Shown: positions 1-58,489, counted from the stretch's first letter. The stretch is DNA of 64,000 bases from Psammoneis japonica (GCA_008632985.1 QPGO01000003.1:806001-870000), one strand, 5' to 3'. Program-made: numbers and translations. Notes: generated by a model not told the origin, from the sequence alone.

Positions 1-4
1 AGGA

Positions 5-19400: not shown

Positions 19401-19873
19401 GCTACTCTGGAGGTTCTCTCTTGCTCTCCACGTACTACCCACCTCTTCGATCCTTTCTTTTCCCAGGATTCTTGTGTTGCAGTGTTATTACCGGTGCAGT
19501 CAGTTGCTGCCTGTCAGCGCTTCCAGTGTATGGGACAAGACGAGCTCACCAGTGAGTGCATGCGTTACCGGTAGTCTAATGTTGCAAAACGATGTGTCAC
19601 CGACCTTTACAGTAGGGCCCTACCTACCGGTACGAACATTCGATGCCGCCGGCATTTACAGCCGGTGTCTGTCTGTCTGTCTGAACTTCCGAGGGTTGAA
19701 GTTGAAGTTACCGGCAGGTTCGACGATCGCGACGATAATCGACTGTTGAACCCAGCGCGAACATCTTCTGACTGGATGTGCTCCCTTCCTTTTTCTCCTG
19801 TCCGGTCCAGATCGGATGGAGGCAGGGCACCTGGAGCCACTCCACCGCAGAGTGGAGGGAGAACCTTGGAGAG

Positions 19874-19901
19874 CAGAGAGAGAGAGAGAGAGAGAGAGAG
19901 A
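19874..19901. repeat. (AG)n microsatellite
   Basis: About 14 AG units. Confidence 0.95.
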
Positions 19902-22900
19902 GGTCCAATGAGAGACAGCAGTGGTCCCCCTCTGCATGAGAGAGGGGTTGTCGTCTGCCGTGGCCTGCTTTCACGTGAACAGGTGCCCACGCAGAAGCAG
20001 GCAGTGCGCGAGCCTCGAGCTGAAGCATTTTTTCTTCAACGGTGTGCTGGCCTGTGCATTCTTGATGGGTCATGGCGGCCCACACAGAAAGCACAAAAGC
20101 ACAAATCTGCATCATCAAAATCACAAGATTGCCCGGTCTCATGAGCACACAAGTTTTTGGTGCCTTTTCATTGTGTTTGGCACAGCTGTCTTGGATGACC
20201 TGCTGGATTTGTGCCTCACAACACAAGCCAAGTGAAGCACAGGTGGCTTGTTCCAGCCCCTTTTGTGGCAATTTTTGCTCTCATCAATTGTGGCACCATC
20301 TTCAGCGCTCATTGCGGTCTGCCACAAAAAAGATGCGGCAAAATGTGATGGCTCATGTGCAAAGTGTTGCAGCAGATTGTTTGCAAAGCAAAAAACTGTT
20401 CTTGTGTCATGGCATCACAAACACAAGCCACAAAGCATCTGGAGCACCAAAGGCTGGGGCAAAAGCAGAGCTGCAAGAGGCGCTGAGGAGGCACAAGAAA
20501 TGTGGTGTGGGCGCAGGGGCACAAAACAACAACGACGTTTGTTCTTCCCTTTCTCTGCAGGAAGGGGGTGCCATGGTTCAGGTTGGGAAGAAAATTTGCT
20601 GTGCAATGTTCTCACAATTGTCAAGGATGCCAGTCACAGTGTCCATCACAACAGTGCCATTCTGAGTGGTTTGATCAGTGCTCGCCTCTTGATGGGCTCC
20701 CCGGTCGGGCAAGAAGAGTGTCAGGTTCACATGTCTGAGTGTTGACATTGCCCTCAACCCAACTTTGGAAGTTCATCCATTGCAAACCAATCAGATCATG
20801 GAGGTTGTGCACGCTGTTGGCACTGACCCAACTCTGCCTTCATTCTGTCTTTTTGCAGATTTCCAGAGTGCACATGCGCTGAACCAGCCGTTGCCTGCAA
20901 GGTGGATGAACAAGCCAAGACAAACTTCTGCCCTTCAACGCTGTTTGCCAATGCACTTGATCATTCATCTGGCTGGCATTTTTCTTCTTTTGGTTGCTCA
21001 ATCAGATTGTCTGACCTGCCATGGAACCCACGACACACTCAGTGGTCCACGAAATCCACAATGCCCACCACGGCCGCAAAGACAGCTGGTCATCCATTGC
21101 AACAATCCCAAGCTGCTTCTGGCAGAACAACACATGTGGCTTTGTAGACACCTCAAGGCCAATCTAGTTCATTCCCCTTTCTGGGAACATTTTTGAACCA
21201 AAAGCACTGCCAAGCTGCAACCAGACTTGCACATCTTTTGTGGACTGCCTGTCAGAAACAACTTCGTGGCTTCTCTTCTTGGGAAGTTGCAGCCGGTTGA
21301 CAGCAATCACACAATCCTCTTTCATTCTTGCATCTGGCTTGAGACTCTTGGAAACAGGGTTGCAAACCAAGAAGAAGGGCCCCTGGATTTCCTTCTGCAA
21401 CAAGCTTGGTCCAATGTGCATTTTGCAGGCACCATCATGTGTGGCCAACACAACCAGGCCAATGACCTCAAGTCCTTCAATGCCTGGTGTGCCATTGAGA
21501 TGGTCCAGTGTGGTTTTTTTTTTGAACCAATGGCAATCAATCCTTTGAGAGTGGCATTGCTGCAATTTGATTTCATGGGAACTCCAATGCATGAAGCATG
21601 CTCATTGTGGGCCAACTGTGATTTCAGAGCTGGATGGTGAGTCAAACAACAGGAAACTCAGGACAGAGACAAACAAGAACTCACTGGCAGATGTGTTGCC
21701 ACAACAGCCTCTGGCACAAAGGCTCTGCTTCCCTTTGTGGGTGACCACCACATCTGCTTTGCTGGTGATTTTGTTTGATGGTTGTGATGCTGTGCAGAAC
21801 ACTTTTCTTTGCACTGCAGCAAGAGCATCACTGCAATGATCCTTGCATGGCAGTGCATCATTGAACAAGGGCACCTTCAGGTTTGTGATGGACTGGGACA
21901 AGAGGACCTTGGAGGACCACTCTCCCTCATTGTCTGGGATTGGATTGTCAATCACCACAGCAAACAGCACAAATGAGAGGACCTGTGCCACGAGGTCTGC
22001 CGCAGTGTGTGGGGTTTTGTTTGTCCATTCCCTCTGGCAGTGGAGGACAGATGCAAAGATGTTGCCACAGCACTCTGCCATGAGAGAGTTTGCAACCCCA
22101 AACTGCCAATGTTTGGGTTGTCTCAGCCACAATGCACACACTCATCACCATCACTCTTCTGCTCCGGTGCCAAGAAATCACTGATTGTTGGAGTCCTCAC
22201 ACTTCCACCAAGTTCATTTCTCTTTTTTGTTCCCCAAAACACCACCTGCGCAAATTCATTGGTGCAGCTTGAATGGCGCTGAACTTTCTGTTTACACAAA
22301 TTATGCAGAACTGTTGCATGTGGTGATGGAGACCCAATTCCCAGTCATCATGAGATTCCTGCCTGCTTCTTGCAAATGAACTCTCAACACTGGCAATGCT
22401 CTCATGTGTGTCCATGGAGTCCCGTTGTCATGCTGCATTTGTTGCACCCACTCCATTGCATTCATGAAAATTTCTTGAAGGCCCAAGCAGATGTTCATGA
22501 AACAGTTGACAGATTTGGGATCTAAGAACATGCCGGCTGCTTTCAGATTGTCCGCCATAATTTTTCCATCCAGAATGGGTGGACACCACATGCACTTTTT
22601 TTAATTGGAGATGGCGGCGCACCAGTGATGGGCACACCCTGGTCATCTGCTCCTTCAGTGGCTGCAGAGAAGAATCTTTGGCAGTTTCTTCTTCTGCCAC
22701 TGCTCTGGGGCTTTGAACAGCATGTGTGACAGATCATGAAACAAGAAGATTGTGTGGGCCTCTTCCAGGATCAGCACCTTGTTGTTCAATGCCAGTGCCT
22801 GTGGCACATCTTTCAAAGTCGGATTCGTTCTTTCAATGCCACTGGCTGGCTCTGACAACATCTTGGCTTTTCTCCTCTTCCTTGTCAACCACATTGACCA

Positions 22901-23499
22901 CAACAAACTCATCCTCACACTTGGTGGCTGGGTGGCTGGCAAGCGTCATCTTCCCTGCCACAATGGGGCTGCACACAAACATGGCAGAACCTTCCCCAGT
23001 GCTGGTCATGATGCTCTTGATCAACCCAACGGTTGCTTCCAATGAAATGAAGACATCCTCATTCCTTTTCTCTTGAAGAGAACCTGCTCTCAGCCATTTG
23101 AAAAGCATCCAGTTGAACAGAATCCATTGTCCAGCAAATGTCATTTGTCTGAAACCCATCATGGAACAGCAAAAAATTTGCCTGTTGCACTCTCTGAGGG
23201 GGTGGTGTCCACTGCATTTCAGCAACTCTCAGGAAGACATTGTTTGTTCATCATTGATGATCTTGTGTGAAAGGTTTCTCTTGCAACCTCTGACCACTGA
23301 TGAGACTCCCACCCAGCCATCTGGTTTCAAGACGCTTTTTGCGAATTAAGCCATTTCAAAAAACACCACACTTGCTTTCACCATGAGAGCAAAAATGGTG
23401 GCTGGAGTGCATTTGTTGCACTGTGTTTGGACAAGATTTTGACATCTGATCTCATGCATTGACACATTGGAACATCTGGAGTTGCTGTGTTCTGGTCAT

Positions 23500-26400
23500 T
23501 GCACCCATGTTTTTGTGATTGATGCACCATGGTCAACCACCACCCAGTGGGATTTTGCAGGTCTCATGGTCAACCACCACCCAGTGGGATTTTGCAGGTC
23601 TCATTGGAAAATTGCTGGGTTTTTCTTTGTTCTGATGGCAAGAATCAATTCTCCTGCATCATTGTCATGTGTTTTGATGTTTGTTGACAACGGGGCTAGA
23701 AGCAAGGGGGGCAATGGCCAAAACTGGCCAAGCCAGAAGTGCCTTGGCCAAGCCAGCATGGCACACCTTTTGGTTGCCAGCATGACAGTTGTGGCAGGTT
23801 CAAGGTGCAACAAGGGCTTGGGATCATCTCACATGCTGATTGTGATGGTCAAACTTCAAAACAGGTGTCTTTCTGCCTTTCTGAGCCAAGAACTTCTCAA
23901 AAAGCACTCATCTGCTTCAGGAGTCAAAAAACTGAGTGGGGACAACAAAAAGTTTTCTGTGTTCTTTCCTTTTCTGAGAGCCGTCTGGTGGGCAGTGGAG
24001 CCCCTGGCAAGAAACAGTTCAAAACAACAAGCCATCAAAGTTGTTGGGGCCTTGAAGCTTGCTCTGCTTTCACTTGCCACACTGTCACTTCAACATGCCT
24101 CCCAGCTGTGATTGTCAAGAAATCACTCTCCAAGTGGCACTTGAATCACTTCTCAACAATGAAAAAAATTGTGATGATGTCAAGCTGCACAGGGGGCTGA
24201 TGGCAAACAAGTTCATGTGACACAGGCTCACCTCACTGTGCAGAGCATGGTGTCTCATTTCATGCAAGGCCACTCAGTCTGTCACAAATGACTGAAAAAA
24301 TGCAAGGATTTTGAGGCCCACAATCTCACTCTAAAACAACTGGAAGACGGTCTGTCCCTGCAACACAAGGGTTGTTGGAAAGTGGCCAAAGAGGCTGGAA
24401 ACCACCAGAAGGACCTTTCTCAAGAAACAGGCCAAAGAACCAGCCAAGGCAAATGAGTCCACTGCAGAAAGACAACTCCATGATCTCCTGCACAAGGAAG
24501 AACAAAGGGAACAGAATTGCAGAGTCAACCAAATCTCTTGCAAGCCAATGAGATCAGCCCCAACCCAACTGCTGAAAAAAAGAGGTCAGGACAACAGGGA
24601 AATCACCACTGAGGAAGAAATTGAAGATGTTTTGCTCACCAAGTGCAAAAACAGACTGCATCAGATGGAGGAGACTTGCCTCATGCAGGAATCACTGGTC
24701 CACAATGTCCAGTTTCTGGGCATTGGTCTGGCAGCCAACACAATGCTGCAAGGATCACACCAACTCACAGAAGGGACCAACGCACATGTTCAAGAATGCT
24801 TCAAACAGCTGAGTCACCCAAGAGGACATGAGCCACCCTCCCTCCCTGGATCACTGCCAAAGAACACATCCACTCATGGAAGTGAGACAGAGAAGATCTG
24901 CACCAGACCATCAGGGCCACATCCAGCCCACTTCCAAGCTTCATGCAACGGCCCTCTTCTTGCAAAGATGGGTGCATCTGTGACAAATTTCCCATGCATC
25001 ACCAGATGCACACCAAAAAGATGGAGGCAAGGAATGGACCTTCTTGTTCCCAAGAAGGAAGGTTGCAAATGCATTGACTTGCTCTGCCTGATGCTCTGTT
25101 TTGAGGTGCACACCAACAACAACAGCAAGTGCCTGGGAAGGAAGATGATGCAACACACAGAACCTCAAAATTGGACAGCCAGAGAGCAATGCATCAGCAG
25201 GAAAGGTCACTTGGTGGAAGAACAAGCCCTCAACAAGCAACAGACATTTAATCTGACAAGAGTGGACCAAATCACATTGGTCAACACAGCTGTTGATCTA
25301 CAATCATGCTGCAACTTGGTGGCATGCTCATGTGCATGGCCATGAGGAGCAAAAGGTGCTCAAGAAGTCCCAATTGCACGCAAATTCATGACACTGCAGT
25401 GCACAGAACACACAGTCAAGACAATCTGTGGCAGATCAGATGATTCATTTGGTGGAGTGCCTCTGCGTAACATGGTTTGACCCAACACACTTCAACCCTG
25501 AAGACAAACCCCTGCAAGGCCTTGGACAAGGCAATGGCAATGCCCCACAAACACAGTCAGCAGTCAGCATGCCTGCACTGGAGATGATGAGAGTGGCGGG
25601 CCATGGTGCTGCATTCAAATCATCCATCAGCAGAGGGTCCCTGAGATCAGTTGGCTTTGCGTTTGTTGATGACAGCAACTTGATGCACACAGCAGCAGAC
25701 TCACATCAACCAAGCTGGGAAGTGGCAGCTGATGCCCAACAAGGCCTGGACCAGTTCATCAGTGGAACGTGCATCACAGGAGGGGACATCCAACCCAACA
25801 AATGCTGGTGGCATCTCATCAAATTTGAATGGAAACAAGGAAATTGGCAACACATGGAGGAAACCATTGACCCATCTGACAAAAATGATCCTCACATGTT
25901 TGGATCTCCCATCTAAATCCAAGCCAAGCAACGGAGACTCTTGGTGTCTGGTTGGCCCCAGATGGCAACTGCAACAAAGTGGTCAAAGCCCTGTAGAAAC
26001 AAGTGGAGGCATGGGCTGACTGAGTCCGCATTGGTCACCTCACTGAAGCAGATGCATGGCTGTCTCTCACACAAAGAATGCAGAAAGCTCTTGACCACCC
26101 ACCACTGGCACTCATGGTCAACTCCAAGGAGTGCAGACACGTTGAAGCTCCTGTGCTTCAACAGGGCATCCTGAGAGCTGGATTGTGCTGCTCATTTCCT
26201 TGGGCAGTTGTTCAAGGACCCAATCACTTCCAAGGATGGGGGTCCAGTCAATTGAATTCACCATGCACAAGAAACACATTGAAGCATTGGCAAAACATGG
26301 CAAGCAACAAACTGTCACTGGCAATCTCATCTGCACACTTCTTGAAAAACACAAACTGGAAATTGGTGTGAGCGGTTAATTCTTGGACAAGCCATGCAAG

Positions 26401-28800
26401 ACCTTTGGTGTGCTGGTGACTCCTTTGGGGATTGAACACCTGTGGAAATTCTTGTCAGAGCACAACATCCATGTTGAAGAGGACACCCCCAACCTGCGCA
26501 TGAGCTGCATTGATGACTCCTTTCTCATGGAACAATTTGCAGACGAAGGCTTTTGGAGCACAAGACCAATTGCTCTCAACCATTGCCGCACATGCCTGTG
26601 TGCAACAACCACAGCCAACACAAGCTCTGGGGATGGCAAAGGAATTCTGGAAGCAGCATGGAACAGCAAAGATGATCCCTCCTTTTGATTGCCCCTTCAC
26701 TGGCCAATCCAAGGTGGGCCATCAGCTGCAGATTGGAACCTGTGGAGGATGGTGCTAAGAGCAACATTCACGAGACCCTCCAACGTGTGTGCTCAACAAC
26801 TGCAGAGGCCCCTGGGTAACTGGACAACCAAAAATGCAGATGACTTGCACTGGACATGGTTCTTTTCTCCATCCAAAGACTGAGTTTACCACAAAGCAGC
26901 AGCGGACAACTGGAAAGTCTGCAAGATGGCCAGCAGAAGATGGGCCAGGGCGCCTCACAGAAGATTTGTTCTGACCAAGGCAGCAACTCCTGTGGGAGAC
27001 CCACAACAGACAAGAATCCATTGGAGAGGCAGAGACACCTGGGAATTGTGTCACACTGGATTGGCTCCAACACAAACATGCCCCCCTGAACCACAATTCG
27101 AGACCATTGTCAACAGAATTTGACATCATCCGGCAAGCTCACAGTGGTCCAATGAATGCATTGCCAACAACAACAACACCTGGCATGTCAACCAAGCTGT
27201 CAGAGCTGCCACTGCTGTTGCTGCAAGTGTTGGGTGCCTCAGCCTTCACCACACAAGGGCCTCAAGAATCCAATCATGTCACAGGCACCAATGTCATCCC
27301 AGGCCACCAGGGAGATGTCAAGTCATGTTGTGTGGAAACAGCAGGTCTCTGTGGGATTGTCTGCATGGTTGAAGACATCTGTGCCCACCACAACATCCAG
27401 AAAGAATCCATCAAAGTGGCTTGCAATGGGGACCAGGCACTCAACAAGACGTTTGACCTCCATGGGCACATTGCACCATGCTCTGACAACTTTGCCCTGC
27501 CAAGTGAATGCCGCAAAAACCAAGTTGGAAAAAAGCAAACTTGAGCGGAAATTCAGGTGGGTCAAAGGTCATCAAGATGGAAAGCCAAGACATGGGCTGG
27601 AGTGATGGGCAAGACTCAACATCCAAATGGACAACCTTGCAAAAGCCAAATGGCAACAGGTCACCCGGTTGAATCCAGGCTTGATGCGGCTCAACATTGA
27701 GGACAAAATGTGGCTGGTCCACACAGGCAAGTGCAAAATGTCCACCAAACTTCTGGAACAATTGCTCAATCAAACCTGTGGCACCAAATTGGTTCACTGC
27801 TGGGCACATGAAAAACAATGCTTCTCATGACAGGGTTTTTCAAAAAGTGGGCTGGGATGCAATTGACAAAGCAGCAGACCAACTGGGAATCGGACACTGA
27901 TGCTGGCCAGCAAAACATGTGACTGGCATCTGCGGAGCAGGCAAGTGGCTGCAATGGTGGAAGCCACAAGACCACTCCCACTGCCCATGCTGTGAAGAAG
28001 ACAACAAAGATGTCTGACACACCCTGATCTGCCCAGAAGCCATGGCCAAGTGGAACAAACTGCTGTGGAAACACGTCAAATGGATGGATGACAACAATGC
28101 AGTGTTCGGGTTCTCTGAAGCAACACAAGAAATCATCTTCAAGCATGGAGAGCTCATGGCAACTTCCCTGTTGCATGCAACAACCTTGCCAGTCCAATCC
28201 TCCAACAGGCCATTCAATCTCAGCACATCATTGGTTGGAACAGGCTCCTGGAAGGCTGTCTACATCATTGGTTGGAACAGGCTCCTGGAAGGCTGTCTGG
28301 TGAGAGAGTGGTCCCAACTGCAAGATGAGCACTTCCGTCAATGCTCCTCCTGCAAAACAGGTGCCAAATGGGTGCAACGCTGGATCAAACAGCCAATCAA
28401 CATCCCTCAAGGCATGTGGAAACACCAAAACAATGCGGCACATCTGAAACTCACAGAACAAGCCATGCAAGAACTTGACACAGCTTTGCATGACACCATT
28501 TCCAATGAGGACAAGAGTCCCTTCTGTCAGAACATGGTTGCCACTTTTGTGGACACCTCATCACTCTGTTGTCCAACCACCACACACACAAGAGGTCATG
28601 GCTGGCCAATGTTGTTGCAGCCCAAGAACGCCAATCCAGAAAACTGGGTGTCAGCATCCAAATGAAAGCAGAGTGAGCCATGCCACACAAGTGGGTCACA
28701 GCAAGAATGCCAACAAAAGAAGCCACCAACACAAAACGTGATGAGGAATCACCCCCTCATCCCTCTTGTCATGTGCACACCCATCTCAGGACAAGACAAG
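23500..28800 (+). mobile_element. Degenerate non-LTR retrotransposon (Ambal-like: RT + RNase H + C-terminal Zn motif); ends approximate
   Basis: PKRWRQG.DLL.PKK, EQC.SRKG, QALNK, DLQSCC, QGLGQGNG, FAFVDDS, ETAGLCG, WVKGHQD, CPCC..H..CP, IGWNRLLEG; many stops and frameshifts. Confidence 0.8.
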
Positions 28801-30569
28801 CACCTCCAATGATTCTGCCTCCAACTTGGAGCAGTTGCGCTAGATTCAAGTTTCTCTTGTTTTGTTTCAGCTGTGCCAGGGACCTGCTCCATCAAACATG
28901 GACAACCAATGGCTGCATGTGACAATGCAGCATCCTGTGCCAGGGCCCAACCATGGTGGGACAACTGACAGTGATGCTCCTTGACATCAAGTTGAGTTTG
29001 CCTTGTTCAAACATGCCCCTCTTTAGATGACAGTCTGGAGCACTTCTCTCCAAAGTCTTGCAGCCAGCCGGCTAAAAGCCTGCAGAGGGCGCTGGCACTG
29101 ACCAGCAATCATTGAGTTGATTGATTGATTGAGAATCCTTTGGTCCTTTTTGGAGTGGGCACCTTTGTGGTTGGCAAGCCTGCTGTGCATCACAACTCTG
29201 CCAGACAAACTTGGCCATGTTGCTCAAGTGCATGCCAAGCAATTGACCCATGATGGCTTCCTTGTTGATGGACTTAACAGGCTTGCTGCTCTTCCCAGAC
29301 ACATTGGTTGCATGGCATGTGGTCATGCAGGCACTCTCATGCAACACATTCCAAGGTGCTGCTGCATGGCTGCAGCTTGATGCAACATGTGATGATGCAC
29401 TGCCACCCCTTGACCCAAAATCTGCTTGAGTTTGATTGCTGCAATGCACACCAAACCCAAGCAACAGAAGAAAACAGCGAGGTGTTGTTTGGGGTGACAA
29501 AACACATGAACTCATGACACAATGAGTTGCACAAAATGCCACACCTGTTTTTGTCTTTTGTTCTTGGCACCTGTGTCATTGCCAAAAATGTTGCAAATGA
29601 TGGAATGTTGACAGTTTTTATTCAAATTCCAAGCCAATGTTGGCAATGCTGTTGGTTGTTGGGTTTGGACATCATTTGGTTGTGATCTCACCAAGTCTCA
29701 GGGTTTCTTGTCATTTCTTGCCTTTTCTCATTGCTTCTTGCTCTTTGCTTCTCGTCACTTCTCATCATTTCTCATGCTTCTCATGATTTCTCATGTTTTC
29801 ATCATCTTGAGCAATCTCCCTGTCCAGTGGCAAAGCAGTGCTGTCAACAACTTTGGCCACTCAAGAGGTTTGCTGCTGGAAGCTCTGTGGTTGGTGGAGA
29901 AGAAATGGCTCAAGAAGCAACAGCAGGCATGGGGCACTGGGAGCCTTGTGCTGAAATGGTGACAAGATGCAGTGTTGATTTGTGTTGCTCTTTTGTGAGT
30001 GTCAGCACTGCTGCAGCTCCAGCCAAGAGAGAGATTTCTTCTCATTTTCTCACAATCTCTCATGATTTCTCACAACTTCTTGTCATTTCTTGTCCTTCTT
30101 GTGAGCTTGCATCACTTCTTGTCACTTCTCATCATTTCTTGCCATTTCTCATTGTGTGTCTGTTGAGAAATGTTGCTTGGATCTCTGCCATTTGACAACC
30201 TTTGGTTTTGCAAAATCACTTTGAAAAACAGGCAGCCTTGTTGGCAGTTGCTCCAGCTGTTGGTGCACAAACATGGGTGGCATTCATGTGTGCAATTGTG
30301 CTCTGCAAGAGCCTGAGTCACCAGCTTTGTTTGTGCCTTCATTGGCAACAACCACACCACCAGGAGTCAACACATGACACATGATGTCATTTGACAATGT
30401 TTGAGCAATGCACCACAACCACTGCACACAGATTGTTGAGGTTTTTCCATGTGGGATGTCCCAGGGTCTCTTTCCACCATGCATTTTTGTGGGTTTTGTG
30501 CAAAGTGCTGCTGGGTGGTGCTTTGGGTGCAAGGCCAAAGCTTTGTGTGGGAAACCATGCAGCCATTTC

Positions 30570-30813
30570 TGACAGGATTTGAACAAGATTTTAGTTTGTC
30601 ACACACAATTGTGTGTGCTCTTGGTTCCGCGCACGTCGCACGATGTAGTTTGCTTTCAAGCCACATGGCTCACAAGAACAATGACAGCAGTGCCATGTCA
30701 TGACACCAGTCTTTCGGCTCCTGCAGTGGTCTCTGAATGGAGACTTATCTGCCATTTAGACAGCAGCAAGGAGTTGTTGTTTACTTCCACCCAGTCATCT
30801 TCATTTTCTGTCA
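30570..30813 (+). repeat. 5' LTR
   Basis: 244 bp, about 90% identical to 37153-37397. Confidence 0.95.
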
Positions 30814-31626
30814 GATTGACAGTCTTGCTCTTTGTCATCCATTGAGCGTTCATCATCATCATCGAGAAATTTTTCGACAACGCGCACCGTTGGCGGTGGA
30901 AGCATGTGTCTGCCTTCTTCACTGCTGGACACTGGATTAAATCTGCACATTTGGATTTATCCAACACCTCTCATTGTTGGATGTGTTCATCAAACGGATG
31001 TTTCTTTGACCAGGAATTCCTGAATTCTCAAGCATCCGAGATTCCGGATTCCTCACAGCGGATCCTGCTAATCCATCTGCTCGCGTCCACGTGCACACGA
31101 TGTGAACCCTTGACTCTGGCCCTGCTTCGCACATGCCAAGTCTACCGCCTTACATCTGCACTGGATTGCTGGTCTTCTGCAGTCCTGCAAGGTCCACGAG
31201 GACAACTGTGAGAGGAAGCAGTTCGTGATTGCAGCCTGTGTTGGGGCGAGGGTGCATTTCCCACATTTGTTCGTCCCTCCACAGCGCCAAATTTGGCCGG
31301 CCTGATCGGGTTGTCCAACCAATGTAAAACAAGAACAGTTCGGAGGTCTTGTCCACCTCTGGCTGGCTTGTCAGCAGAGGTTTTTTACCCGTTGCTCCAC
31401 TCTCAGGCAACCCAAAGCGTCGCCAGCTGCGGGTTCGGACGTGCCGGCACAACCCTGCAGACCGGATGGGAAGCTTGGCACTTAACTACGAATGGGACAT
31501 CACAGCCCAGCGGCTTCTGACTCTTGAGATAGTTCAAGACATCAAGTCAAGATTCAAGTCAAGTTTCAAGCCATTTCAAGCCCACACTCCAATTTTAGCC
31601 AGTTCCAACATCCACCCAGTTGCAAC

Positions 31627-34600
31627 ATGGTCCTCACCAGGCAACATCAAATCAATGGCCTCAAGCACATTCTAGGCACTGTCCTGAATCAAGCCGCAGA
31701 CAGTCCATTGCGCTCCACCCTCAACATTGATGGAACCGATTCGCATCAGGACCTTTTCACTTTTACACCGATGCAATTGGATGCCCTTGTGCACAATGAC
31801 GGCACCAATCAAATGCCCTTGCCACGTGGTTACAAAGCACAGACAGCTGCGCTGATTAGCCTGTACACGGCAAAAGCGCACGGCGGCACGGATGTCAGCA
31901 ATGACCCTCAATTGTTCACGCAAGAGGAGTTCACCATCTGTTGTCTCAGTCCTGAGCATGCAGCGTCCCTCTCCATGGGTGCAGCACCAACTGCTCCCAC
32001 CCCTGGCTCGTTGCCACCCAAACCACGTGATCCCATGCGTGACTTTAAACGAGGCATCAAACGTGACCCACTCACCTTCGCGCTTCTCAAGTCTGACAAA
32101 CAGCGGCACACATGGCACACCCCCATCATCGCACAGGCCTGCTCCCAAGACATCGCACGCATTCTCGATCCGACGTGCACAAGCCCTCTGCAGCTGAGGA
32201 CAAGGCCCTGTTTGCTGAACAACAGAAGCACATGTTTGCCGCATTTGAACAGATCTTGCAGAATGACAAAGGCAAGGCTCTTGTTCGTCAACATGTCGGC
32301 TCCTCTGATGCTCAAGCGGTGCATCGTGATCTCTCCAAGTGTGCCCTTGCTTCCACTCGCGCATCCCTGGAGTCCTCGACCCTTCTCACGCACCTCACCA
32401 CTGCTCGCCTCAGTGATGGCACCTGGAAAGGATCCACTCATGCCTTCATGCTCCACTGGCAGGACCAGCTCCGCAAGTGTGAAGCTCTTGTCCCGGGTGC
32501 GGACCATTTCTCTGCTGGCCAGAAACGTGTCATGCTTGAGAATGCTGTTCATCCTGTTGAGGAACTCCGTTTGGTGAAGAATCAAGCCGATCAGTTCCGC
32601 ATGCAGAATGGAAAGGGGCTCTCTTATGAAGAGTGCTGTGGACTCCTGCTTTCTGCTGCAGCACAGCACAACAGCACGTTCACCCCCAAGACGGCTCCTT
32701 GCACTCCACGCCATGCCATCTACGAACATGACCTGGTCCCTGATGACCCTGATGATGATGCATTCTTCGACATCGACAGTGATGTTGACGTCATCCAAGC
32801 TTGTGCTGCATGAACTCGCGGCAATTCCCTCACCAAGGAACAATGGCGTTGCATCCCGCCGGACCATCAGCGCATTTGGGACACCTCACCCCAATCCACC
32901 AAGGCCATCATGCACAACCTCCGCATTGGCAGCGATGGTGATGTCAACTTGTCCGCCCACACTCACGATCTTGCGTCAGCCTCTGCACAATTCAACGCTG
33001 CAGCCGATGCAGCCGATGCCAACCCCATTCTGGCTCATCTCACCAGGCGCAAGCCTCTGCCACCCGGCAACTTGCAACGTCTCCTGGCCCCTGAACGGCC
33101 TCCTTCCGCCCGTTCTGGTGAGAAACCGCCCGGATCCACACCTTCCGTCCACTCCGATGCGAAGCCCATTGACACTGACATTGAGATCAACGGCCATGAA
33201 TGCCGTCGCGTCAAGAACCACAACGTTGTCTGCTCTGCCTCGACCCACAAGTCAACTCGCAAAGGTGCTCTCGTGGATCGTGGTGCAAACAGCGGTGTTG
33301 CCGGTGATGATGTTCGTGTCATTGCCCGCACTGGTCACCAGGTTGACGTCCAAGGCATCAACGATCATCAACTGGTTGACATTCCCATTGTCACTGCCGG
33401 TGTTGCCATCCACATGCAACGCGGCCCTGCCATTGCCATCCTTCACCAGTGCACCTGCACTGGAAAGGGGAAGATGATGCACTCTTGCGGCCAGCTCGAG
33501 TGGCACAAACACGATGTCAACGATTGGTCCATCAAGGTTCCCAATGGTCTGCAGCGCATCACCACTGTTGATGGATGCGTCATTCCCATCGACATTAAAG
33601 CCGGCCTCCTGTGCGTTGCCATGCGCCCGCACACCGACACCAAATGGGACACTCTGCCACATGTTGTCCTCACTGGTGATGACACATGGGACCCATCTGT
33701 CCTTGACCACCAGTTCGCCAATGATGAAAAGTGGTGTGATGCCATGTCTGACCTCCAAGACGACCCGACTGCCAACCTCTTCGATGAGTTCAGCAACTGT
33801 TGTCACCGCCATGTCATCAACAACGCCATGCTTGCAGACTCCGTCCTTGATGATCACCTGCTCCCGACATCTGATTTCTTCTACGAATGCCATGAGCGCA
33901 AACTCCATCCCAAGGATCCCGACTTTGAGTCCCTCCGCTGCCACCTTGGCTTTCTCCCAAAGGACACTGTCCACCGCACTTTTGATTGCACGACCCAGTG
34001 TGCCCGCATGCCAACCAGCATGCACCTGAAAAAGGCGTGCAAATCGCCCAACCCGGCTCTCAATGTCCACCAATGTGATGAACCCCTTGCCACCGACACG
34101 GTCTGCTCCAGCACCCCTGCCATTGACTCTGGTTGCACCAGCACCCAGCTCTTTGTCGGCACGGAATCTCTTGTCACTGACATGTGTGGCACCAAAACTG
34201 ACAAAGAATTTGTCACCACCCTTGAGGACAACATTTGTAATCGCGGTGCCCCGTCCAAGCTCATCAGCGACCATGCTCAGGTTGAGATCAGCAACAAGGT
34301 TCTTGGCATCCTTCATGCCCTCTTCATCTCTAGTTGGTAAAGCGAGCCTCACCACCAGCATCAGAATTTTGCTGAACGCCACTGCCAAACTGTGAAGACC
34401 ATGGCCAACACTGTCATGGATTGCTTCAGCTCACACCTGGCTGCTTGCCCTGATGCATGTGTGTTTTGTGCTCAACCACACGGCGTCCGCCAAGCTCCAC
34501 TGGCGCACCCCCCACCGAGGTGCTGTCCAGCTCTGCTCCTGACATCAGCCCGCTCCTCCGCTTTCAATGGTGGGAACCCGTGTGCTGCCACCTGGATGAT

Positions 34601-37165
34601 TCCGACTGGCCGTCCAAATCCCGTGAATTACGTGGTCGCTTCATTGGCATCGCCGAACACGTTGGTCACCAAATGACGTTTAAGATTCTTTCTGATGACA
34701 CTCAGAAGATTCTCTGCCGTTCCAACGTGCGCTCCGCCCGTGATCCGTCTGCTCCAAGCCTGCATCTTGATCCTCCTGACAAGAAATCTGCTGACCCTGT
34801 CATTAAATCCCGCCACCACTCCGAGAATTTGCCAGATTCACCAGATGGGGAGGCGATCAGGATGCCCAAAATGCCGGTCTTTGACCCCAAGGATGTCACA
34901 GGACGCACCTTCCTCATGAAGCCACAAGAGGATGGACAGCACCACAGAGCCCGCATCGTCAAAGCCGTTGAGGACCACGACTGGAAAATTGGAGGCAATC
35001 CTGAACTGGTCAAGTTCATTTGCTCCGTCAACAATGACGAATGCGAGGAAGTCCCAGCCTGCAATGACATCATGCACCACATTGAGCAAGAAGACGAGGA
35101 CTCAACTCTCTGGAAGTTCTGACGCATCACATTGCACAAAGGACCATTGCGACCCCATGATCCCTCTTGGAAAGGCTCAAGCTACAACGTCATGCTTGAA
35201 TGGGAGAATGGGGAGATCACGTCTGAACCCCTTGCCATCATTGCCAAGGATGACCCCGTCACCTGTGCCATCTACACGCGTGAGCACGGCCTTCTAGAAA
35301 CTGAAGGATGGAGACGTCTTTGCAAGATAGCACTTTGTCAGAAGAAGCTGTTCCGCATGGCCAACCAAGCCAAGTTGCACTCCTTTTGCACTGCGCCACG
35401 ATGCAAGTGCGGGTGTGAAGTGCCACGGGACTTCAAGCATGCCATGGCCCTTGATGAGCGCAATGGCAACTGCAAGTGGGGAGACGCAACAGACCTTGAG
35501 ATGAGCCAGCTTGATGAGTGCAAGGTCTTCCACGACTGTGGACACCACAAGGATTCCAGTGCTCCATCGGGACACAAGAAGATCCGGGTGCATCTCATCT
35601 GCAACGTCAAACATGATGGATGGCCCAAAGCAAGGCTTGTTGCCGATGGACACCTCACAGACGTGCCCATCGACAGTGTCTGTTCCGGAGTGGTGTCTCT
35701 CCGTGGCCTGCGAATGATGATCTTCCTGGCCGAACTCAACGAACTAGAGACCTGGGCCACTGACATTGGGAATGCCCACCTTGAAGCCACGACCAAGGAG
35801 AAACTGTACATCACAGCAGGCCCCAAGTTTGGTGACCTGGAAGGACACATCCTTGTCATCCACAAGGCCTTGTGCAGACTCTGCAGCTCCGGCCTCAGAT
35901 GGCATGAATGTTTTGCCGATTGCTTGCGTGCCAAAGGCTTCTTTCCATGCAAAGCCGAACCCGACATCTGGCTGCACAGGAATGGTGACCACTGCGAATG
36001 CGTGGCAGTGTATGTGGATGACCTGGCCTTCGCCATGAAGGACCCCCAGGCTTTTGCAGACACCCTCATGGAGAAGTGCAAGTTCAAGCTCAAGGGCACT
36101 GGACCATTGGAGCTTCATCTTGGCTGCGACTTCACCCGTGACCCAGATGGCACCCTGTGCCTTGCTCCCTGCAAGTGCATTGAGTGCATGGTTGACAACT
36201 GCACACACCTCTTTGGGGAGAAGCCCCGCACTGATGTGCTTTCACCCCTTGACAAGGGTGACCACCCTGAGCTCGACACCTCCGAATTGCTCAAACTGGA
36301 TGGCATCCACCAATTCCAATCCTTGATTGGATCCCTGCAATGGACTGCATCTCTGGGTCGCATTGACATCACTGCGGCTGTCATGTCCCTGTCCAGCTTC
36401 CATGCAGTGCCCCGTCAAGGCCACCTGGACCGTGCCAAATGCATCTGCGGATTCCTCTCCAAGATGCGTCATGGCACCCTCCGAGTGCGCACCGAGGAGC
36501 CCGACTGTTTGGACCTTCCCAAGCCCGTGTGCGGTTGGGCTCAATCCATGCATGGGGAGGCAGAAGAGCTGCTCCCGCAAGATGCGCCCGAGCCACTTGG
36601 CAAGTTCGTCACCACCACGCACTGCATTGATGCGAACTTGTTCCATTGCATGCTCACTGGATGCTCTGTCACCGGCATCCTCCATTTCCTCAATGAGTTT
36701 CCGGCTGATTGGTTCTCTTAGAAACAAGCAACAGCAGAGACTGCTGCATGTGGATCCGAGTTCGTTGCCGCGCAAGGACGTGTGTCAAGCAGATCATCAA
36801 TCTGCGCGTCACTTTGCGTCACCTTGGCACCCCCATTCTCGTGAAACATGTTGCATGTTTGGGGGGACAACAAGTTGGTTGTGGACAGTGCTGCCATCCT
36901 GCACTCCAAGTTACACAAGTGACACACCACCCTCTCGTTCCATCGTGTGCGTGAGGTGATTGCCTCCGGTTTCCTTGAGCTTCATTTTGTCGAAGGCTCC
37001 CGCAACCCGGCTGACATCCTCAGCAAGCATTGGGGTTGCTCCCAAATCTGGAACCTCCTTTGTCCTCTAATGTTTTGGAACTTCGATCCCAAGGCTTTCA
37101 ACCAATCCAACTTCGAATCTGTCACTGTTGACCCCTCAAGCAAACTGGGGAGTGACAGGATTTGA
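31627..37165 (+). pseudogene. Copia gag-pol, disrupted and Tyr-depleted
   Basis: LVDRGANSG (PR), GAPSKLISDHAQVE and QNFAER (IN), ARLVADGH, DIGNAHL and YVDDL (RT), NPADILSKHW (RNase H). Confidence 0.9.
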
Positions 37166-37397
37166 ACAAGATTTTAGTTTGTCACACACAATTGTGTGTG
37201 CTCTTGGTTCCGCGTGCGTTGTGTGATGTAGTTTGCTTTTGAGCCACATGGCTCACAAGAACAATGACAGCAGCGCCAATGTCATGACACCAGTCTTTCA
37301 GCTCCTGCAACGGTCTCTGCACGGAGACTCATCTGCTGTTTAGACAGCAGCAAGGAGTCATTGTTTTCTTCCACCCAGCACTTTTCATTTTCTGTCA
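37153..37397 (+). repeat. 3' LTR
   Basis: 245 bp, immediately after the PPT. Confidence 0.95.
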
Positions 37398-38475
37398 ATT
37401 TTCAAAGGAGTGGCAAGAAAGTTCAAGCCACCTCTTTTTGTTTTTTCCATCAACAAATGACATGGCACAGAGGATTTTGCTCTGCAGCCAGAGGGAGGCA
37501 AAGGACACCCAGGTGTGGCGGTTCTTTCCACCAACACAAAAAATGGCCGTTTGGCGATTTGCTCTGACCACACACATGCTCTGTGCCAGGTGTGAACATG
37601 CAAAGAAAAGGCATTGATGGCATCATGCCCCATGTGCAGGGTTGGTCCCACAGACACTTCCAAAACAAGGCAGCAGCAGCAGAGTGGGCATTTTGGCCTG
37701 TGGCACAATGGCAGCACTGTCCTCACAACAGAGCAACATGACCAAGACAGCGCAAGTGCAAAATTCCACCCCTTCTGCAGGAAGAGTCACTGCGCGAGCT
37801 TTCCAGACCCTGCACAAGAGTTCTTGAATGAGCCAGTGCAGAGCCCCCTCCTCCCACCACATGAGGAAAACTTTAGAATCACTTGCCCAGCCCTCCCTTT
37901 GAGGTGCCTTGTCAAGAGCTGGCGGGGTGCCATGGGGTGCGCGAGATTGCTTGTGCCACACACATCTTAAATGCACGCCCATCCTAAAGCATGTGATCAT
38001 GTCTTCACATGCCACGCACAACCACATCCCACTGCGACGCCACAAGGGATTGACGCATGGTGCGACCTGCAGATGGACGATGTTACGGAGTCACCGGAAT
38101 GGTCGAGCAGACCTAAATTCAAAAAATGATTGACCTGCCGACCGACCTGCGTGCCTCTGGCCTGCGCCTGCATGCCGCCCCGTTGACCGTTGACCGTTGA
38201 CCGTTGACGCGACCGTTACCATACAGTAGTTGCAAGCACCGCGCCATCGCCAACATTTCTCTTTGCTATTCGCCACTCTAGGCTATCTACCGGTAATTAA
38301 CTTTTGCCATCATCTTCTGACCACAGAGTACAGAGTTTGTTACAGTGCACAGTGCAAAGGACCCTACCAGCGCATTGTTTATTGCTTCTACACTGTGCAT
38401 CATTATTCATATTATTTTTGTGTGTGGGGATGTTCCCTATTTCAGCGTGACTGTCTCTCCCGTCGAGCAGAAAGA

Positions 38476-41234: not shown

Positions 41235-42019
41235 TGAAACAAGATCGCAGCCAACCACTTTTGATCTGTAAAGAAAACTATCTTGCACAGGATCGAAGCA
41301 TTTACACATTCTCGTCCTTGCGAAAAAAGAACACGAACAGGATTTGCTATGTATGTGAAAAAGTGAGGAGGTGAGAGTTCTTGCGAGCGTTGAGCGTTGG
41401 AGTGGATATTAATTAATAATGAACATACCGTATATGTTCCATACAATGTTAAATATCAACAAACGAATCACTTTCAACTTTTATTTTAAAATTGTTGGAC
41501 ATTTATTTTTAAAATTAAAATCGAAAAAACTACAGGTACTGCATGTATGTGCATACACGATTTCCCACGCAGCGCCGTTGTGCGCGAGTGCCAGAGTGCT
41601 AACCGAAATCCGATCTCTGTGCCGATGATCAAGAATAAACCCTTTCAGTTTTCAGACAAAGGCCAAACCACAGCATGCCGTACATAAAATATGTAGAATT
41701 CTACGTCAACACTTTACCGTGTTGTAAATCAAAATCACGTGGTGAAAGCACGGTGAAAAGTTTGAGGGGTGGAGAACGTCCACATGAGCATGCAAGTGGT
41801 TCAACATTGTGCAACTGTTGCCCAACACATGCAAAGGTTGTGTTAACTTGAAGCTTTTGCCAGCAGAGATGTTGGATCAAAAATTTTGGACAACCCTTGT
41901 TTCGACACAGTGAAGTCGGTGAATCGCTCGCCAACTGGCAGGCAAATCGCCAGCAATTAACTGGAAATGCTTTGTGAGGCTCCAAATGACTGACAAAGTA
42001 GATTCTTTGGCAAAAGATC

Positions 42020-43250
42020 ATTGTGCATTGTCAAGCATGTCTGTTCAATCAGCTTGCACAGTCAAGATGTGCCCCAGCGTCAAACAGGGCAGAGACAACA
42101 GATTGTCTCTTTCCTTTTCGTGCTTTCACTGTGGTTTCCATTTTTGAACATGGTGAAATGCGCACACAATTTTGTGCCAAGCACTGCAGCATGCTGTGGT
42201 TTTGCTGGCTGAAAGAGTTTGTCGAGTGCACACACCGCGTTGCAAAAGAAGGTGCCAAATGGCTGGATTCTGTCATCGTTGCCAATTGTTGGGCCAACGT
42301 TGATTGTTTTGCTTGTTGTGTTGCAATGAGTTGCTGATCTGGCTGAACAGAGCAGTGGCAAGAAGCTTCCTCCATGTTTTCCCGGCCCACCCACTTGGGA
42401 ATCTCCTGGTTGCTGGTGTGCATCTGACCAGCCACAGCTTGGGAGCTGATCCCCACCGGGTGCCTTGCAAGTCACATTGACCACCTTTGCACAAGCAAAA
42501 AGAAACACAGATTGGCACACAAGAGATGGTTGCACGGGCAAGTTGGGAACAGGCTCCCATGCAAAAGTGCAGCAGCCAGTTCCCCAAATCAGTTTTTGAA
42601 ATCACTGCCAGAGCCTCCTGTTGCCAGCTGCTGTTGACTGCTGGAATGTCCACTTTTGCTGCCACAGGATGACTCACTGCACCTCAAGGAAGATCTGTTG
42701 GCATTGGCACCATGAGTGAGGCCACATGCAGCAGAGAATTTCTTCCCCCTTCAGCGATGTTTTGCAAACTCTCAGATTGGAAAGCCGTGGCTGCAGTCCT
42801 GGGACACCTGCTTTTGTGTGGGTTGAGGTTGATGTGGCAAAGAACTTTGGCCTGTTCCAGCCCCAGGTGATGAGAAATCCATCAAACAAGAGGCCAATTT
42901 TCTGTGCAGTTTGGCACATTTGATCTTCAAGTTTGATCGTTTCGAAAATCGAAAGGTGAGTGTGCACAAAAAAACATGAGTTTTGTGTGCACTCACCCTT
43001 CGATGTGGGAAAAACCTGATTTTGAAGGAGTTCAATGCACTGAATGCAAAATTGTGATGGGAGTCAAACCTGTGCACATCACCTGGAGCTGCAACAGGCC
43101 CGCTGGCACAATTGGTTGCAAAGATGTCACCTTCGTTCCTCTGCACAATCTGGCATGATGGCTCAGACAATGTCCAACACAAAGAGAGATGCCCCACAAC
43201 AAAAGACAACAGCAGCTTGATGTCAACAAAACCCCTCCATCATTTTTCAG
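42020..43250 (-). pseudogene. Eroded copy of the 53060-54600 gene-like sequence, with a ~630-bp deletion and a MITE insertion
   Basis: 42230-42423 aligns with 53210-53407; 42425-43230 aligns with 54035-54590. Confidence 0.7.
42849..43100. mobile_element. Eroded MITE with 24-bp TIRs and an internal hairpin
   Basis: ggcctgttccagccccaggtgatg / catcacctggagctgcaacaggcc; empty site in the paralog at about 54445; hairpin 42950-43003. Confidence 0.8.
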
Positions 43251-44149
43251 AATTTGCTCTCTTTTCTCTTTTGCACTGCTGCTCTGTCAACCAAACTCCT
43301 GAACATGTTTTTTGTGTTCAATGGAGGTGAAAATCAAAAATCACATGAGAAAATTGTTTTTTGCACCACATGCATGAATCTCCTGTTCAACTGGTCCATC
43401 TCTTCAATGACTGTGTCCTCCACAAGCTGGCATGTGCTTTTTTGTTGTCTCTTGTTGCTCTGTGTGTGAAGCAGACATTGTTGCCTCGTCTCAGATGATT
43501 GATGGGTCTGTGCGGGAAATGGTGTTTTTAAGGCATGTGCATGAGTCACGTGCAGCGTCACAATGTCGGACAGACAACGGTCATGCAGTTGTTGCGATTT
43601 GCATGACAAACTGCTGTTCAAAACACCGATGATGACAGTGGCACTTTTCGGATGCTCTTTGAGATTAAAACTTGGCAATGGGCGCTGGCACATTGATCAA
43701 CTGTGCTGTTGTGAACACAAGTGTGCAAAGAAAGCACCCGGACAAAGTCTCAATCATTCAACAATGAATGCACAAAATTGACTGGTGCAAAAACAGAGCT
43801 CAGCATTGGTGTGATGTTTTGCTTTCACATGGAGGTTGCTTGTGGGGACTTTCATGACTGAGCACATTCTCAAACATGACCAAATTAAATGTCCACAATG
43901 CTCAAACATTGAAGATGCACATTGCTGTCATTGCAACAATGCACCTCCATCATGTCAAAGATTTTCAGCAATGAGGCATGCAGTGCACTGCGCACTTCTG
44001 GCACAGTGGAAAATCCTGAAAAATCAAATCGTCCTGCCTGCACCCTTTCTTCTGCAATTGCCTCAAGCAAAAAACAAAGAGTCTGTGTGGTTGACCATTT
44101 GCAATGCCAACTGCGCAGCTGCGCACAATTTTTCTGCTTGATGAGCTTG

Positions 44150-44472
44150 TGCATTTTTGACACAACTTTGACACAACTTTTGGCACAAACCAAACTTGTG
44201 CCACATTTCTGAAAATGCACATCCGGGTGTTTTTTGATTTTCACAAGACTTCCAGTGCAAACTCCACACAAAAAAATAAAACCCGATGTGCATCATTTTG
44301 AAAGTTGTGTCACACATTTTGAAAAATGTGTGCACGGGTTCTTTCGTGTGCAGAAGTCTGGTGCATTCCCACACAACGCAAAAGTTGGGATGTTTTCAAT
44401 TGTGCACATCCAGGTCTTTGCACACCTTTTTTGTCTCACAATTTTTTGTGTCAAATGTTGTGTCTAAAAATG
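44150..44472. mobile_element. Possible eroded foldback element or MITE
   Basis: Imperfect inverted repeats catttttgacacaactttgacacaa / ttgtgtcaaatgttgtgtctaaaaatg. Confidence 0.5.
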
Positions 44473-45299
44473 TCTTTTCTTCAAGGTGGTGTTGGCAATG
44501 AATTTGTCTTGTCTGACAGATTTTGTGCTGGCAGGCACAATTCACATCAATTGTTTTGACACACAGACCCAATCACTTGGGATGCAGACACTGGCCTGCT
44601 CATTCATTCCCCCAAACGTCGGTGCAAGAGGGACCAATTTTAGCAATGACTTTGCCCCCATTTAGCCTCTGTCAAAAAGGGTGCCTTTCACAGCTGTGGG
44701 CTGTTCCGCAGGATCAACTGCATCCTGACACTGCTGTTTGACACTGGCACATGTGACCCTGCGTCCACATCTGATGTGTCCCCACTGCTTGAAACTGGGC
44801 ACTGTTGACTTGCATTTGATTTGGATGTGCTTCAGTGCAAAATTGTTCTTCTAAGAAAATCATCCTTGAACAATGACCACATGCTTTGTGTGTGCAAAAT
44901 GGCAAAATCAAATGCAAAATGCAGCCATTTGCAGTCACTTGGGAGGAAATGGTTCAAGAGAGATGATGTTGAAGTGAAAATCAAAATTGACACACATGGC
45001 ACAAGTGCAATGAAAAACAAGCCTTTTGTGGGGGCACTGACCACCATGCTCATGTGGAACAATCAAAATGTTCAGAAACGAGGACAGAAGCAAACAGCGC
45101 TCAATGTCAATGGGAATCACTTAAAAATGTCGAGTTGGTCACAATTGATTTTTTGCATGACGAAAAATGCAAAATCATGTGGAAATGCACACAATGTCAT
45201 GCAAGAAAGTGATTTGAGCCAATGACTTGGGGGAAGTCAATTGAAATTCATCTGATCACAAGAGCATTTTGATTCACATGTGGGAAAGAGCAACACCCT

Positions 45300-56388: not shown

Positions 56389-56627
56389 CACTGCTGCAGG
56401 TGCGATGCCACACCTCAAATCTCACTTTTCTTTTTTTCTTGTCTTGAAGCAACGAAATGTCCAACAATGATGTCCGATGTCCTCAAAGCGAAGCAGTCAT
56501 TTTGCTGCGGCCTGCTCATGACCTTGCCGGCACTGCTGCCCATGTCACATGCTGTGCGATGAGCACCGCATTTCACTGCCGTCACTTTTGACAGACAATG
56601 CACTCCATGGTTTGATGGGTGTGAAAG

Positions 56628-57860: not shown

Positions 57861-58489
57861 TGTCATCACAGGACTCGCCAACAGCCAAAGGAAGATCTGT
57901 GGGGGATGATGTGACGCAGCAGAAAAGGCTTCCGCCACCCAAGCTTTGCAAACTCCGCAATGGAAGTCCATCTGGTCATGACTACAGTCCTGGGACACCC
58001 ACTTTTGTGAAGGACACAAATGGTGGTTAACATGAAGAGATCCCGTTTTTTGCAAAGATGTCTGTGGCATCAAGGACTGGCATGTTCCACTCTCACCAGG
58101 ATTTGTCATCATGCAGTTGAGTGGTTCATTGCCTCAGCTCCTGTGCAAAATTGAGCATGATTTTCGGACGACATCCGACACAGGTGAGGAGAGGCTGCTG
58201 TCCCCTGACCAGAGGTTAGCAGTGCCAGCAGCAGAGATGAGAGAGGCCTGAACAGCTTTCCACATGCTCTGAGAGCAGCCCTGGGAGATCATGAGCTCCC
58301 AGCATGAGATCTGGAGCGCGCACCTCAGCCAGCCTTGGGATACACTTGTCAAGGCCGATCTCAGTACGTTTGTGGAAGAAGATGCTAAGCAGGCAACGCG
58401 TTTTGATTTGGGTCTATTCATTTTCATCGTTCACGCTGCTCGCAGTCGCTTGCAGTCACCTTTTCTATCCCATCCTTTGAGAAGAAAGA

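Follow-up and report, generated by a model that had tools for sequence, protein, structure and literature searches.

Hypermutation confined to the dinucleotide TpA (TA below) has been described in the chlorarachniophyte Bigelowiella natans, where it strikes integrated viral DNA (Mettrop et al., bioRxiv 10.64898/2026.01.13.699255). According to that preprint, mutation-accumulation lines show the hypermutation to be ongoing and episodic, two integrated viral regions received 231 of 302 de novo mutations, all of the GC-biased ones were at TpA, 124 clusters are depleted in TpA and enriched in CpA and TpG, and Pfam domains of transposable-element type (reverse-transcriptase, DDE) occur in TpA-poor coding sequences. 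An ADAT2-like deaminase was proposed there without proof, the candidate being Bn78255, an ADAT2 homologue with the cytidine deaminase (CDA) fold. The words 'context', 'trinucleotide', 'flanking' and 'CpG' are absent from its main text. It was the only account of TpA hypermutation found in the full-text literature, and nothing was found there for diatoms; TpA-only hypermutation is already described, and a preference for the base directly 3′ of the target adenine (+1) is new within the literature searched. Such a preference is reported here for a 64,000-nucleotide stretch of DNA from Psammoneis japonica (GCA_008632985.1 QPGO01000003.1:806001-870000; the window), in which blocks that would represent integrated transposable elements, at least one Copia-type long terminal repeat (LTR) retrotransposon and one other retroelement among them, have been stripped of TA.

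The signature in the window is that described for B. natans in three respects. Change is almost exclusively A>G or T>C at TpA, giving TpG or CpA on either strand; it is limited to foreign or mobile DNA with sharp boundaries, the blocks of the window holding the Copia element and another retroelement while host genes are spared; and its substrate is chromosomal DNA, which in the window is seen in CA/TG swaps between LTRs and between paralogues. The host differs, the relatives of a window protein being diatoms at 40-50 % identity (one protein) rather than chlorarachniophytes, as does the extent of erasure, which is ~94 % complete in the blocks, whereas the hypermutable regions of B. natans are described as retaining many TpA. 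Repeat-induced point mutation (RIP) of ascomycete fungi is also a post-integration process of dinucleotide-specific transitions that strikes transposons on both strands within sharp limits and destroys their coding capacity. RIP, however, acts as C>T mainly at CpA and creates TpA (RIPCAL, PMC2621366), whereas the process in the window erases TpA, raises CpA and alters the A:T pair. The pattern set out below is probably the work of a site-recognising activity that converts A:T to G:C at TpA in integrated mobile DNA, acts on the two strands independently, and is faster when a pyrimidine lies 3′ of the adenine (T > C > G > A).

Sharply limited blocks in which TA and CG are nearly gone sit among the host genes of the window. 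At 300-bp resolution the first extends over ~19,740-38,000, where block A, the Copia element and its right flank adjoin, and the remainder are blocks C to F (Table 1). In 1-kb bins from 20,001 to 31,000, between 0 and 7 TA were counted against 59-73 predicted from base composition, and 3-20 CG against 52-63, with TG and CA raised roughly twofold. Across all blocks only these four dinucleotides were altered: the observed/expected ratio of TA fell from 0.56 in normal DNA to 0.06 in the blocks and that of CG from 0.94 to 0.32, while TG rose from 1.20 to 1.81 and CA from 1.19 to 1.72. In the host genes between the blocks, TA and CG were normal.

The TAs that survive in the blocks are strongly biased in context. 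With Y a pyrimidine and R a purine, a YTAR site would be disfavoured on both strands, an RTAY site favoured on both, and YTAY and RTAR sites favoured on one strand only (one-sided). Block A contains exactly 25 TA (21,145 to 29,619), lying after the last TA of normal density at 19,736 and before those at 30,592 and 30,646. A preliminary description had placed the block at 19,980-30,560; all 25 TAs do lie within these limits, but the erased block begins at ~19,740-19,900. The approximate tally given there, 14 YTAR, 11 one-sided and 0 RTAY, proved exact when every TA was listed (CTAG 4, CTAA 5, TTAA 4, TTAG 1; RTAR 5, YTAY 6). This distribution departed from 1:2:1 (chi-square, p=3e-4), from the shares in the window's normal DNA (17.6 % YTAR, 51.6 % one-sided, 30.9 % RTAY; p=5e-7), from those of the intact Copia relative L001 (14/50/36 %; p=1e-9), and from what random regeneration out of the TG and CA of block A would give (p=3e-4). 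The six other blocks provided an independent replication (55/42/4, n=101, p=3e-23), and the seven blocks pooled gave 69 YTAR, 53 one-sided and 4 RTAY (n=126; p=1e-29 against normal DNA). When NTAN tetramers were counted in all eroded blocks, the check proposed in the preliminary description, the 3′-base bias recurred in all seven, which confirms that the survivor bias is real. YTAR sites, called protected there, do survive most; they are slower to be lost rather than immune, only ~19 % of those expected being left in block A, and between 19 and 41 % across A, Copia, C, D and E, the five larger blocks, so that 60-80 % of these sites have gone as well (hand division against the normal-DNA baseline).

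If the strands are struck independently, RTAY should vanish first and YTAR last longest, as the survivors do. In the proposed mechanism, the survival of a site would be the product of the survival probabilities of its top-strand and bottom-strand contexts. A model was fitted in which each strand is hit independently at a rate that depends on the nucleotide following the A, with normal DNA as the baseline and four parameters. The fitted values of kt were 2.72 for T, 1.66 for C, 0.84 for G and 0.33 for A, corresponding to per-strand survival of 0.07, 0.19, 0.43 and 0.72; the order at +1 is T > C > G > A, with a span of ~8-fold and a pyrimidine-to-purine ratio of ~3.6. The four-rate model was favoured over a single rate (likelihood-ratio test [LRT] 142, p=1e-30) and over a model distinguishing only Y from R (ratio 3.6; LRT 27, p=1e-6), and the +1 preference is graded, not a clean Y/R switch. 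Indeed, the multiplicative form fitted all ten tetramer classes (deviance 5.66, 6 degrees of freedom, p=0.46). Survival was 0.52 for TTAA, 0.31 for CTAA/TTAG, 0.14 for CTAG and 0.01 for ATAC/GTAT, and none of ~98 expected ATAT sites remained.

Ancestral states were drawn mainly from the Copia element, with the decayed retroelement of block A as a second source. For Copia, 85 intact metagenome polyproteins of at least 1,700 amino acids were aligned by tblastn, and a codon was counted as conserved when the consensus reached at least 60 % with at least 30 matches. The reference polyproteins were not themselves hypermutated (Tyr ~4 %, Cys ~1 %), and 759 of 1,027 conserved codons agreed with this ancestral consensus. 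A metagenome scan for DNA of Copia relatives yielded one locus, the intact L001. For the retroelement of block A, 591 proteins matched at E<=0.001, and tblastn matches extended over 24,300-28,600, on the + strand only, its relatives measuring ~1,600-1,990 amino acids and one of them carrying a weak RVT_1 match.

The conserved codons show that a 5′ T is required. The 54 conserved Tyr codons of Copia had become Cys in 28 cases, His in 12, Phe in 6, and Trp and Val in one each, and 6 were kept; of 12 in the block A retroelement none was kept (His 5, Cys 4, Phe 2, Glu 1). At second codon positions in Copia, A>G was found at 28 of 54 adenines preceded by T, compared with 3/89 after A, 0/68 after C and 3/128 after G, or 6/285 for all bases other than T. 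By residue, Y>C (28/54) stood against H>R 0/39, Q>R 0/29, N>S 1/28, K>R 2/61, D>G 3/83 and E>G 0/45. The block A retroelement agreed, with TA>TG at 4/12 and other NA>NG at 3/102. Since A>G is almost confined to A after T, generic WA mutagenesis (W, A or T) is rejected. The preliminary description had judged that an enzyme reading T-A-Y fitted better than generic WA mutagenesis and that AA runs looked intact; the 5′-base counts bear out the former, and the observed/expected ratio of AA (1.14 in normal DNA, 1.20 in blocks) the latter. AA>AG as frequent as TA>TG, which would have contradicted it, was not seen (3/89 versus 28/54).

Survivor counts cannot distinguish a rule of 'A then Y' from one of 'purine at -2', because the two are reverse-complement equivalents: in N1-TA-N2, complementing the base at +1 on either strand gives the base at -2 on its partner. 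A mutator that reads a purine two bases 5′ of its target A (R-T-A) would leave identical survivors. The rules differ only at one-sided sites, where T-A-Y predicts YTAY > YTGY and RTAR > RCAR and the distal rule the reverse. Among conserved Tyr codons of Copia with a pyrimidine at N1, 12 had become TGY (and one TGG), 1 had become CAY and 4 remained TAY, so that 12 of 13 changed in the TGY direction (binomial p=0.003); with a purine at N1 (RTAY) the figures were TGY 16, CAY 11 and 2 kept. Ile ATA codons of Copia followed by G had given ACA twice and ATG never, with one kept, and those followed by C had given ATG three times. In block A, YTAY Tyr codons yielded one Cys and one His, and ATA-A became ACA once. 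When both retroelements were pooled over sites at which either outcome changes the amino acid, the T-A-Y direction prevailed by 16:2 (p=0.0013), which, together with the survivor bias, upholds the T-A-Y motif of the preliminary description. As RTAR>RCAR is a bottom-strand and YTAY>YTGY a top-strand event, a plain sense-strand bias cannot account for this ratio. With rates fitted from survivors only, the adjacent-flank model exceeded the distal model by 9.3 ln units over 45 directional events. At the C-TG-C site 34,534-5, the sole usable TA-derived site among the 40 of ~2,370 differing positions listed (contigs of public run X1, at least 80 % likeness), the other X1 copies carried T>C at 23 % and G>A at 48 % of depth, or ~TG 52 : CA 23 : TA 25, in agreement with the 2:1 expected from the fitted rates. 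Finally, paralogue pairs held 74 YTGY/RCAR against 33 YCAY/RTGR; the ratio in normal DNA is 1.24:1 (p=0.005).

Several observations weigh against this direction or weaken it. The evidence comes mostly from 13 Tyr codons of Copia, block A alone giving 2:1, and within Copia the comparison of YTAY with RTAY fell short of significance (Fisher p=0.063). A>G after T at first codon positions was found in 9/181 Thr, Ile or Met contexts (next base Y) and 2/121 Lys or Asn contexts (next base R), the right direction at p=0.21. One LTR site reads cTTATc > cTCATc, and Leu codons, at which only the contrary product is visible, had become Ser TCA-C once in Copia and Pro CCA-C twice in block A. With L001 DNA taken as the ancestor, YTAY sites of the window copy gave TG 14 : CA 20; this comparison is confounded by 55 % DNA identity and saturated third codon positions and was set aside as a test of direction. 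The k-mer excess of Copia over the host baseline (hand arithmetic) also leans the opposite way. In terms of the T-A-Y share of one-sided TAs, the excess of YTGY/RCAR over YCAY/RTGR, with CpG loss taken as 1:1, implied 0.70 for A, 0.80 for C, >1 for D, 0.30 for E, 0.90 for F and 0.28 for Copia, a measure too dependent on the baseline to decide. At A-TA-C sites the products were TG 6 : CA 1, although the fitted rates would have favoured CA slightly, and some sense-strand bias is possible. Lastly, the expected numbers of TA throughout derive from baselines that are proxies, not true ancestors. The distal rule is accordingly compatible with the survivor counts and draws on the LTR site, the Copia k-mer excess and the L001 proxy, which are confounded by synonymous divergence or a poor baseline; set against the YTAY Tyr codons, the pooled ratio, the likelihood ratio of e^9.3 and the population site, it is very unlikely. 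The T-A-Y reading is supported over other flank rules, and the claim of direction is well supported but from few sites, mostly in one element.

The survivor pattern could arise with no context preference of the mutator at all, if surviving TAs were recent back-mutations or were held by selection or local chromatin. Some TAs must indeed reappear over time, and a few survivors lie in retained Leu CTA or Tyr TAC codons. Random regeneration from the TG and CA of the blocks predicts 23/53/24 % YTAR, one-sided and RTAY, however, against 55/42/3 % seen (p=7e-18); selection is implausible in elements that are dead, Copia carrying stops, frameshifts and changes in 26 % of conserved residues; and the multiplicative fit over ten tetramers is what two independent strand attacks should give. 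This explanation is highly improbable. Error-prone repair or a Pol eta-like polymerase aimed at silenced chromatin, with no base-modifying enzyme involved, can be given hardly any credence. Pol eta produces A>G at WA, as stated in the preliminary description, and thus strikes AA too, whereas the mutator in the window spares it: AA>AG is rare (N>S and K>R compared with Y>C above), the AA ratio is unchanged, and the all but total disappearance of a single dinucleotide, under a strict 5′ T requirement, resembles site recognition.

The changes might alternatively have been made in RNA, by ADAR-like hyper-editing of double-stranded RNA (A to inosine after U), and fixed through reverse transcription and integration. 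ADAR prefers a 3′ G. At least two blocks are retroelements, and ADAR hyper-editing likewise produces A>G with a 5′ U preference, with repeats as targets (10.64898/2026.01.13.699255, Discussion). The two LTRs of Copia, identical at integration, nevertheless differ at 18 runs of positions that include 5 CA/TG swaps as well as CG/TG differences. A CA/TG swap marks a common TA (or CG) altered on opposite strands in two copies, and so the mutator acts after integration, on DNA. Paralogous stretches at 42,2xx-43,3xx and 53,2xx-54,6xx also differ mainly by CA/TG swaps, and 23 CA/TG mixed sites were counted over all paralogue pairs. The strands were struck about equally at RTAY (16:11), the non-coding flank beyond the LTR (37,398-38,000) was erased as well, and the +1 order T > C > G > A opposes the preference of ADAR. 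An origin by RNA editing is therefore barely credible. A more serious alternative, unlikely all the same, is attack on the paired thymine, for example oxidation to 5-hydroxymethyluracil by a dioxygenase of the TET/JBP type, or a different change to T that makes it mispair with G. Every A>G reads as T>C from the complementary strand, and all the sequence evidence fits 'T preceded by a purine' equally well: such an activity would read R-T-A on the T strand, preferring A > G > C > T immediately 5′ of T, and the best substrate, ATAT or TAT, is symmetric. 5-Hydroxymethyluracil, though, pairs mainly with A. The only paper on a signature of this kind proposes, unproven, adenine deamination (10.64898/2026.01.13.699255).

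An artefact of assembly or of base calling at modified bases was considered and rejected: contigs of run X1, which may be the source sample of the window, matched 5 kb of block A exactly (19,910-23,557 and 23,575-24,949, 0 differences), and the decay is coherent at the protein level. Among the X1 Copia paralogues, differences were mostly transitions (C>T 592, G>A 537, T>C 496, A>G 372), with 30-64 of each transversion type.

In the mechanism favoured here, mobile elements would be struck after integration by a mutator that needs the 5′ T and, working on either strand, replaces A:T by G:C within TpA, leaving TG or CA; RTAY sites would be lost first and YTAR sites last. The agent would be an enzyme serving genome defence. 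Judged from sequence, the simplest candidate is a DNA adenine deaminase reading T-A-Y, and an activity that reads R-T-A and targets the paired T would be equivalent. An A stacked between two pyrimidines may leave the helix by base flipping most readily, which would give a graded +1 effect. TadA acts naturally at U-A-C-G of tRNA-Arg, and it, ADAT2-ADAT3 and the TadA-derived base editors deaminate an A that follows U or T, T-A-C being common to them and to the window. Their strict 5′ T is matched by the counts after T and after the other bases given above. At the 3′ C position the fitted rate for C is high but exceeded by that for T; the optimum in the window is T-A-T, which is not known as a natural anticodon context of ADAT or TadA, and the substrate is chromosomal DNA. 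TadA is invoked here purely as an analogy.

CG was lost in parallel, by what appears to be a second process. Relative to L001, Copia has lost ~87 % of its TA and ~35-40 % of its CG, whereas block A, which is older and into which Copia inserted, has lost both; two processes are thus indicated, a fast loss of TA and a slower decay of CpG. The TA process is probably episodic, and the decay of CpG to TpG and CpA looks like the ordinary loss of methyl-cytosine in methylated repeats. Of 68 conserved Arg CGN codons in Copia, 11 had become Cys, 9 His, 2 Gln, 1 Trp and 1 a stop. Strand choice at YCGY was unbiased (TG 7 : CA 6). First-position G>A after C affected 16/138 Val/Ala codons but 10/203 Asp/Glu/Gly codons, a roughly twofold difference that may reflect a context bias of the CpG process. 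Methyl-CpG deamination of silenced transposons shares the conversion of CG to TG and CA with the blocks but is separate from, and slower than, their loss of TA.

Table 1. Hypermutated blocks and retroelements of the window (positions counted from its first nucleotide; block limits at 300-bp resolution)
Feature	Coordinates	Strand	Remarks
Hypermutated block A	19740..30569		25 TA vs ~420 expected from normal DNA; CG ~84 % lost; TG/CA ~doubled
Second retroelement, decayed coding region in block A	24300..28662	+	tblastn matches
Copia-type LTR retrotransposon	30570..37397	+	RVT_2 match; TA 45 vs 355 in intact relative; CG down ~35-40 %
5′ LTR of Copia	30570..30813	+	89.8 % identity with 3′ LTR
3′ LTR of Copia	37153..37397	+	pairs with 5′ LTR
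TA-erased right flank of Copia	37398..38000		3 TA, all YTAR; older hypermutated DNA continuing past the Copia insertion
Hypermutated block C	41990..49790		survivors 19 YTAR, 10 one-sided, 0 RTAY
Hypermutated block D	51900..55800		survivors 7 YTAR, 4 one-sided, 0 RTAY; repeat family common to block C
Hypermutated block E	56400..58200		survivors 5 YTAR, 3 one-sided, 0 RTAY; CG loss milder
Hypermutated block F	62700..64000		survivors 2 YTAR, 2 one-sided, 1 RTAY; continues beyond the window end

The Copia element is flanked by the pentamers ATTTC (before the 5′ LTR) and ATTTT (after the 3′ LTR), an apparent target-site duplication. Its family is very abundant in run X1, with 11,910 contigs at 80 % likeness or more and a summed depth of tens of thousands compared with ~35 over flanking single-copy DNA. 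The Copia reverse-transcriptase proteins P0121 and P0122, on contigs of 1.86 and 1.28 Mb, had the top bit scores (1,060 and 1,044) with a BLASTP identity of only 50 %. Between 24,000 and 29,000, an excess of A over T of +0.13 to +0.26 on the + strand matches the sense strand of the decayed retroelement in block A. A Pfam scan of 135 stop-to-stop frames within the blocks gave no significant match.

The genes of the window are eukaryotic and encode U-box, CBS-domain and PAP_fibrillin (plastid-type) proteins, V-ATPase subunit H, a GT64 glycosyltransferase and a 2OG-Fe(II) oxygenase. The named best HMMER matches of the CBS/SDS23-like protein were all diatoms, at 40-50 % identity and none near-identical; a protein atlas listed fungi as its taxa, which was given less weight. 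The host is provisionally called diatom-like from this one protein, the PAP_fibrillin gene also being present. No deaminase domain was found among the scanned open reading frames (ORFs) of the 64-kb window. An open-ended ORF at 2-904 (+), 19 kb from the first block, carries an AlkB-like 2OG-Fe(II) oxygenase domain (PF13532, E=1.7e-9), a nucleic-acid-modifying family; no evidence links this ORF to the hypermutation. A DUF6824 domain (E=9e-19) is encoded by an ORF at 18,453-18,905 (-), directly upstream of block A. Two pairs of duplicated stretches in the window have escaped TA erasure: the pair 38,465-39,509 and 58,479-59,544 (~1.05 kb, 81.7 % identical), which adjoins two hypermutated blocks, has normal TA and CG, and a weaker pair at 16,123-16,567 and 60,414-60,852 (71 % identical) is likewise not TA-erased. 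That these duplicated stretches keep their TA speaks against simple repeat-induced targeting.

The first report of a genome defence by TpA-specific A:T>G:C change dates from 2026 and concerns a single alga (10.64898/2026.01.13.699255). The same signature, near completion, in an apparently different algal lineage and in ordinary retrotransposons suggests that the mechanism may be widespread. Tentatively, a natural DNA adenine deaminase reading T-A-Y, best T-A-T, may form a defence against transposons and viruses common to at least two distant lineages of SAR (stramenopiles, alveolates and Rhizaria) algae, the chlorarachniophytes and a diatom-like stramenopile. Were this true, the enzyme would be the first DNA adenine deaminase found in nature, and a ready scaffold for A>G base editors. 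The quantitative substrate rule, which the B. natans preprint does not give in its main text, offers a biochemical test for TadA/ADAT-like or thymine-modifying candidates, and its fingerprint of four rates (+1 T > C > G > A, a strict T at -1 and independent strands) is specific enough to match candidate deaminases biochemically. The rule is also a prediction that can be checked directly in published mutation-accumulation data, and it accounts for which TAs persist in old elements, which should aid in detecting and dating such blocks in other genomes.

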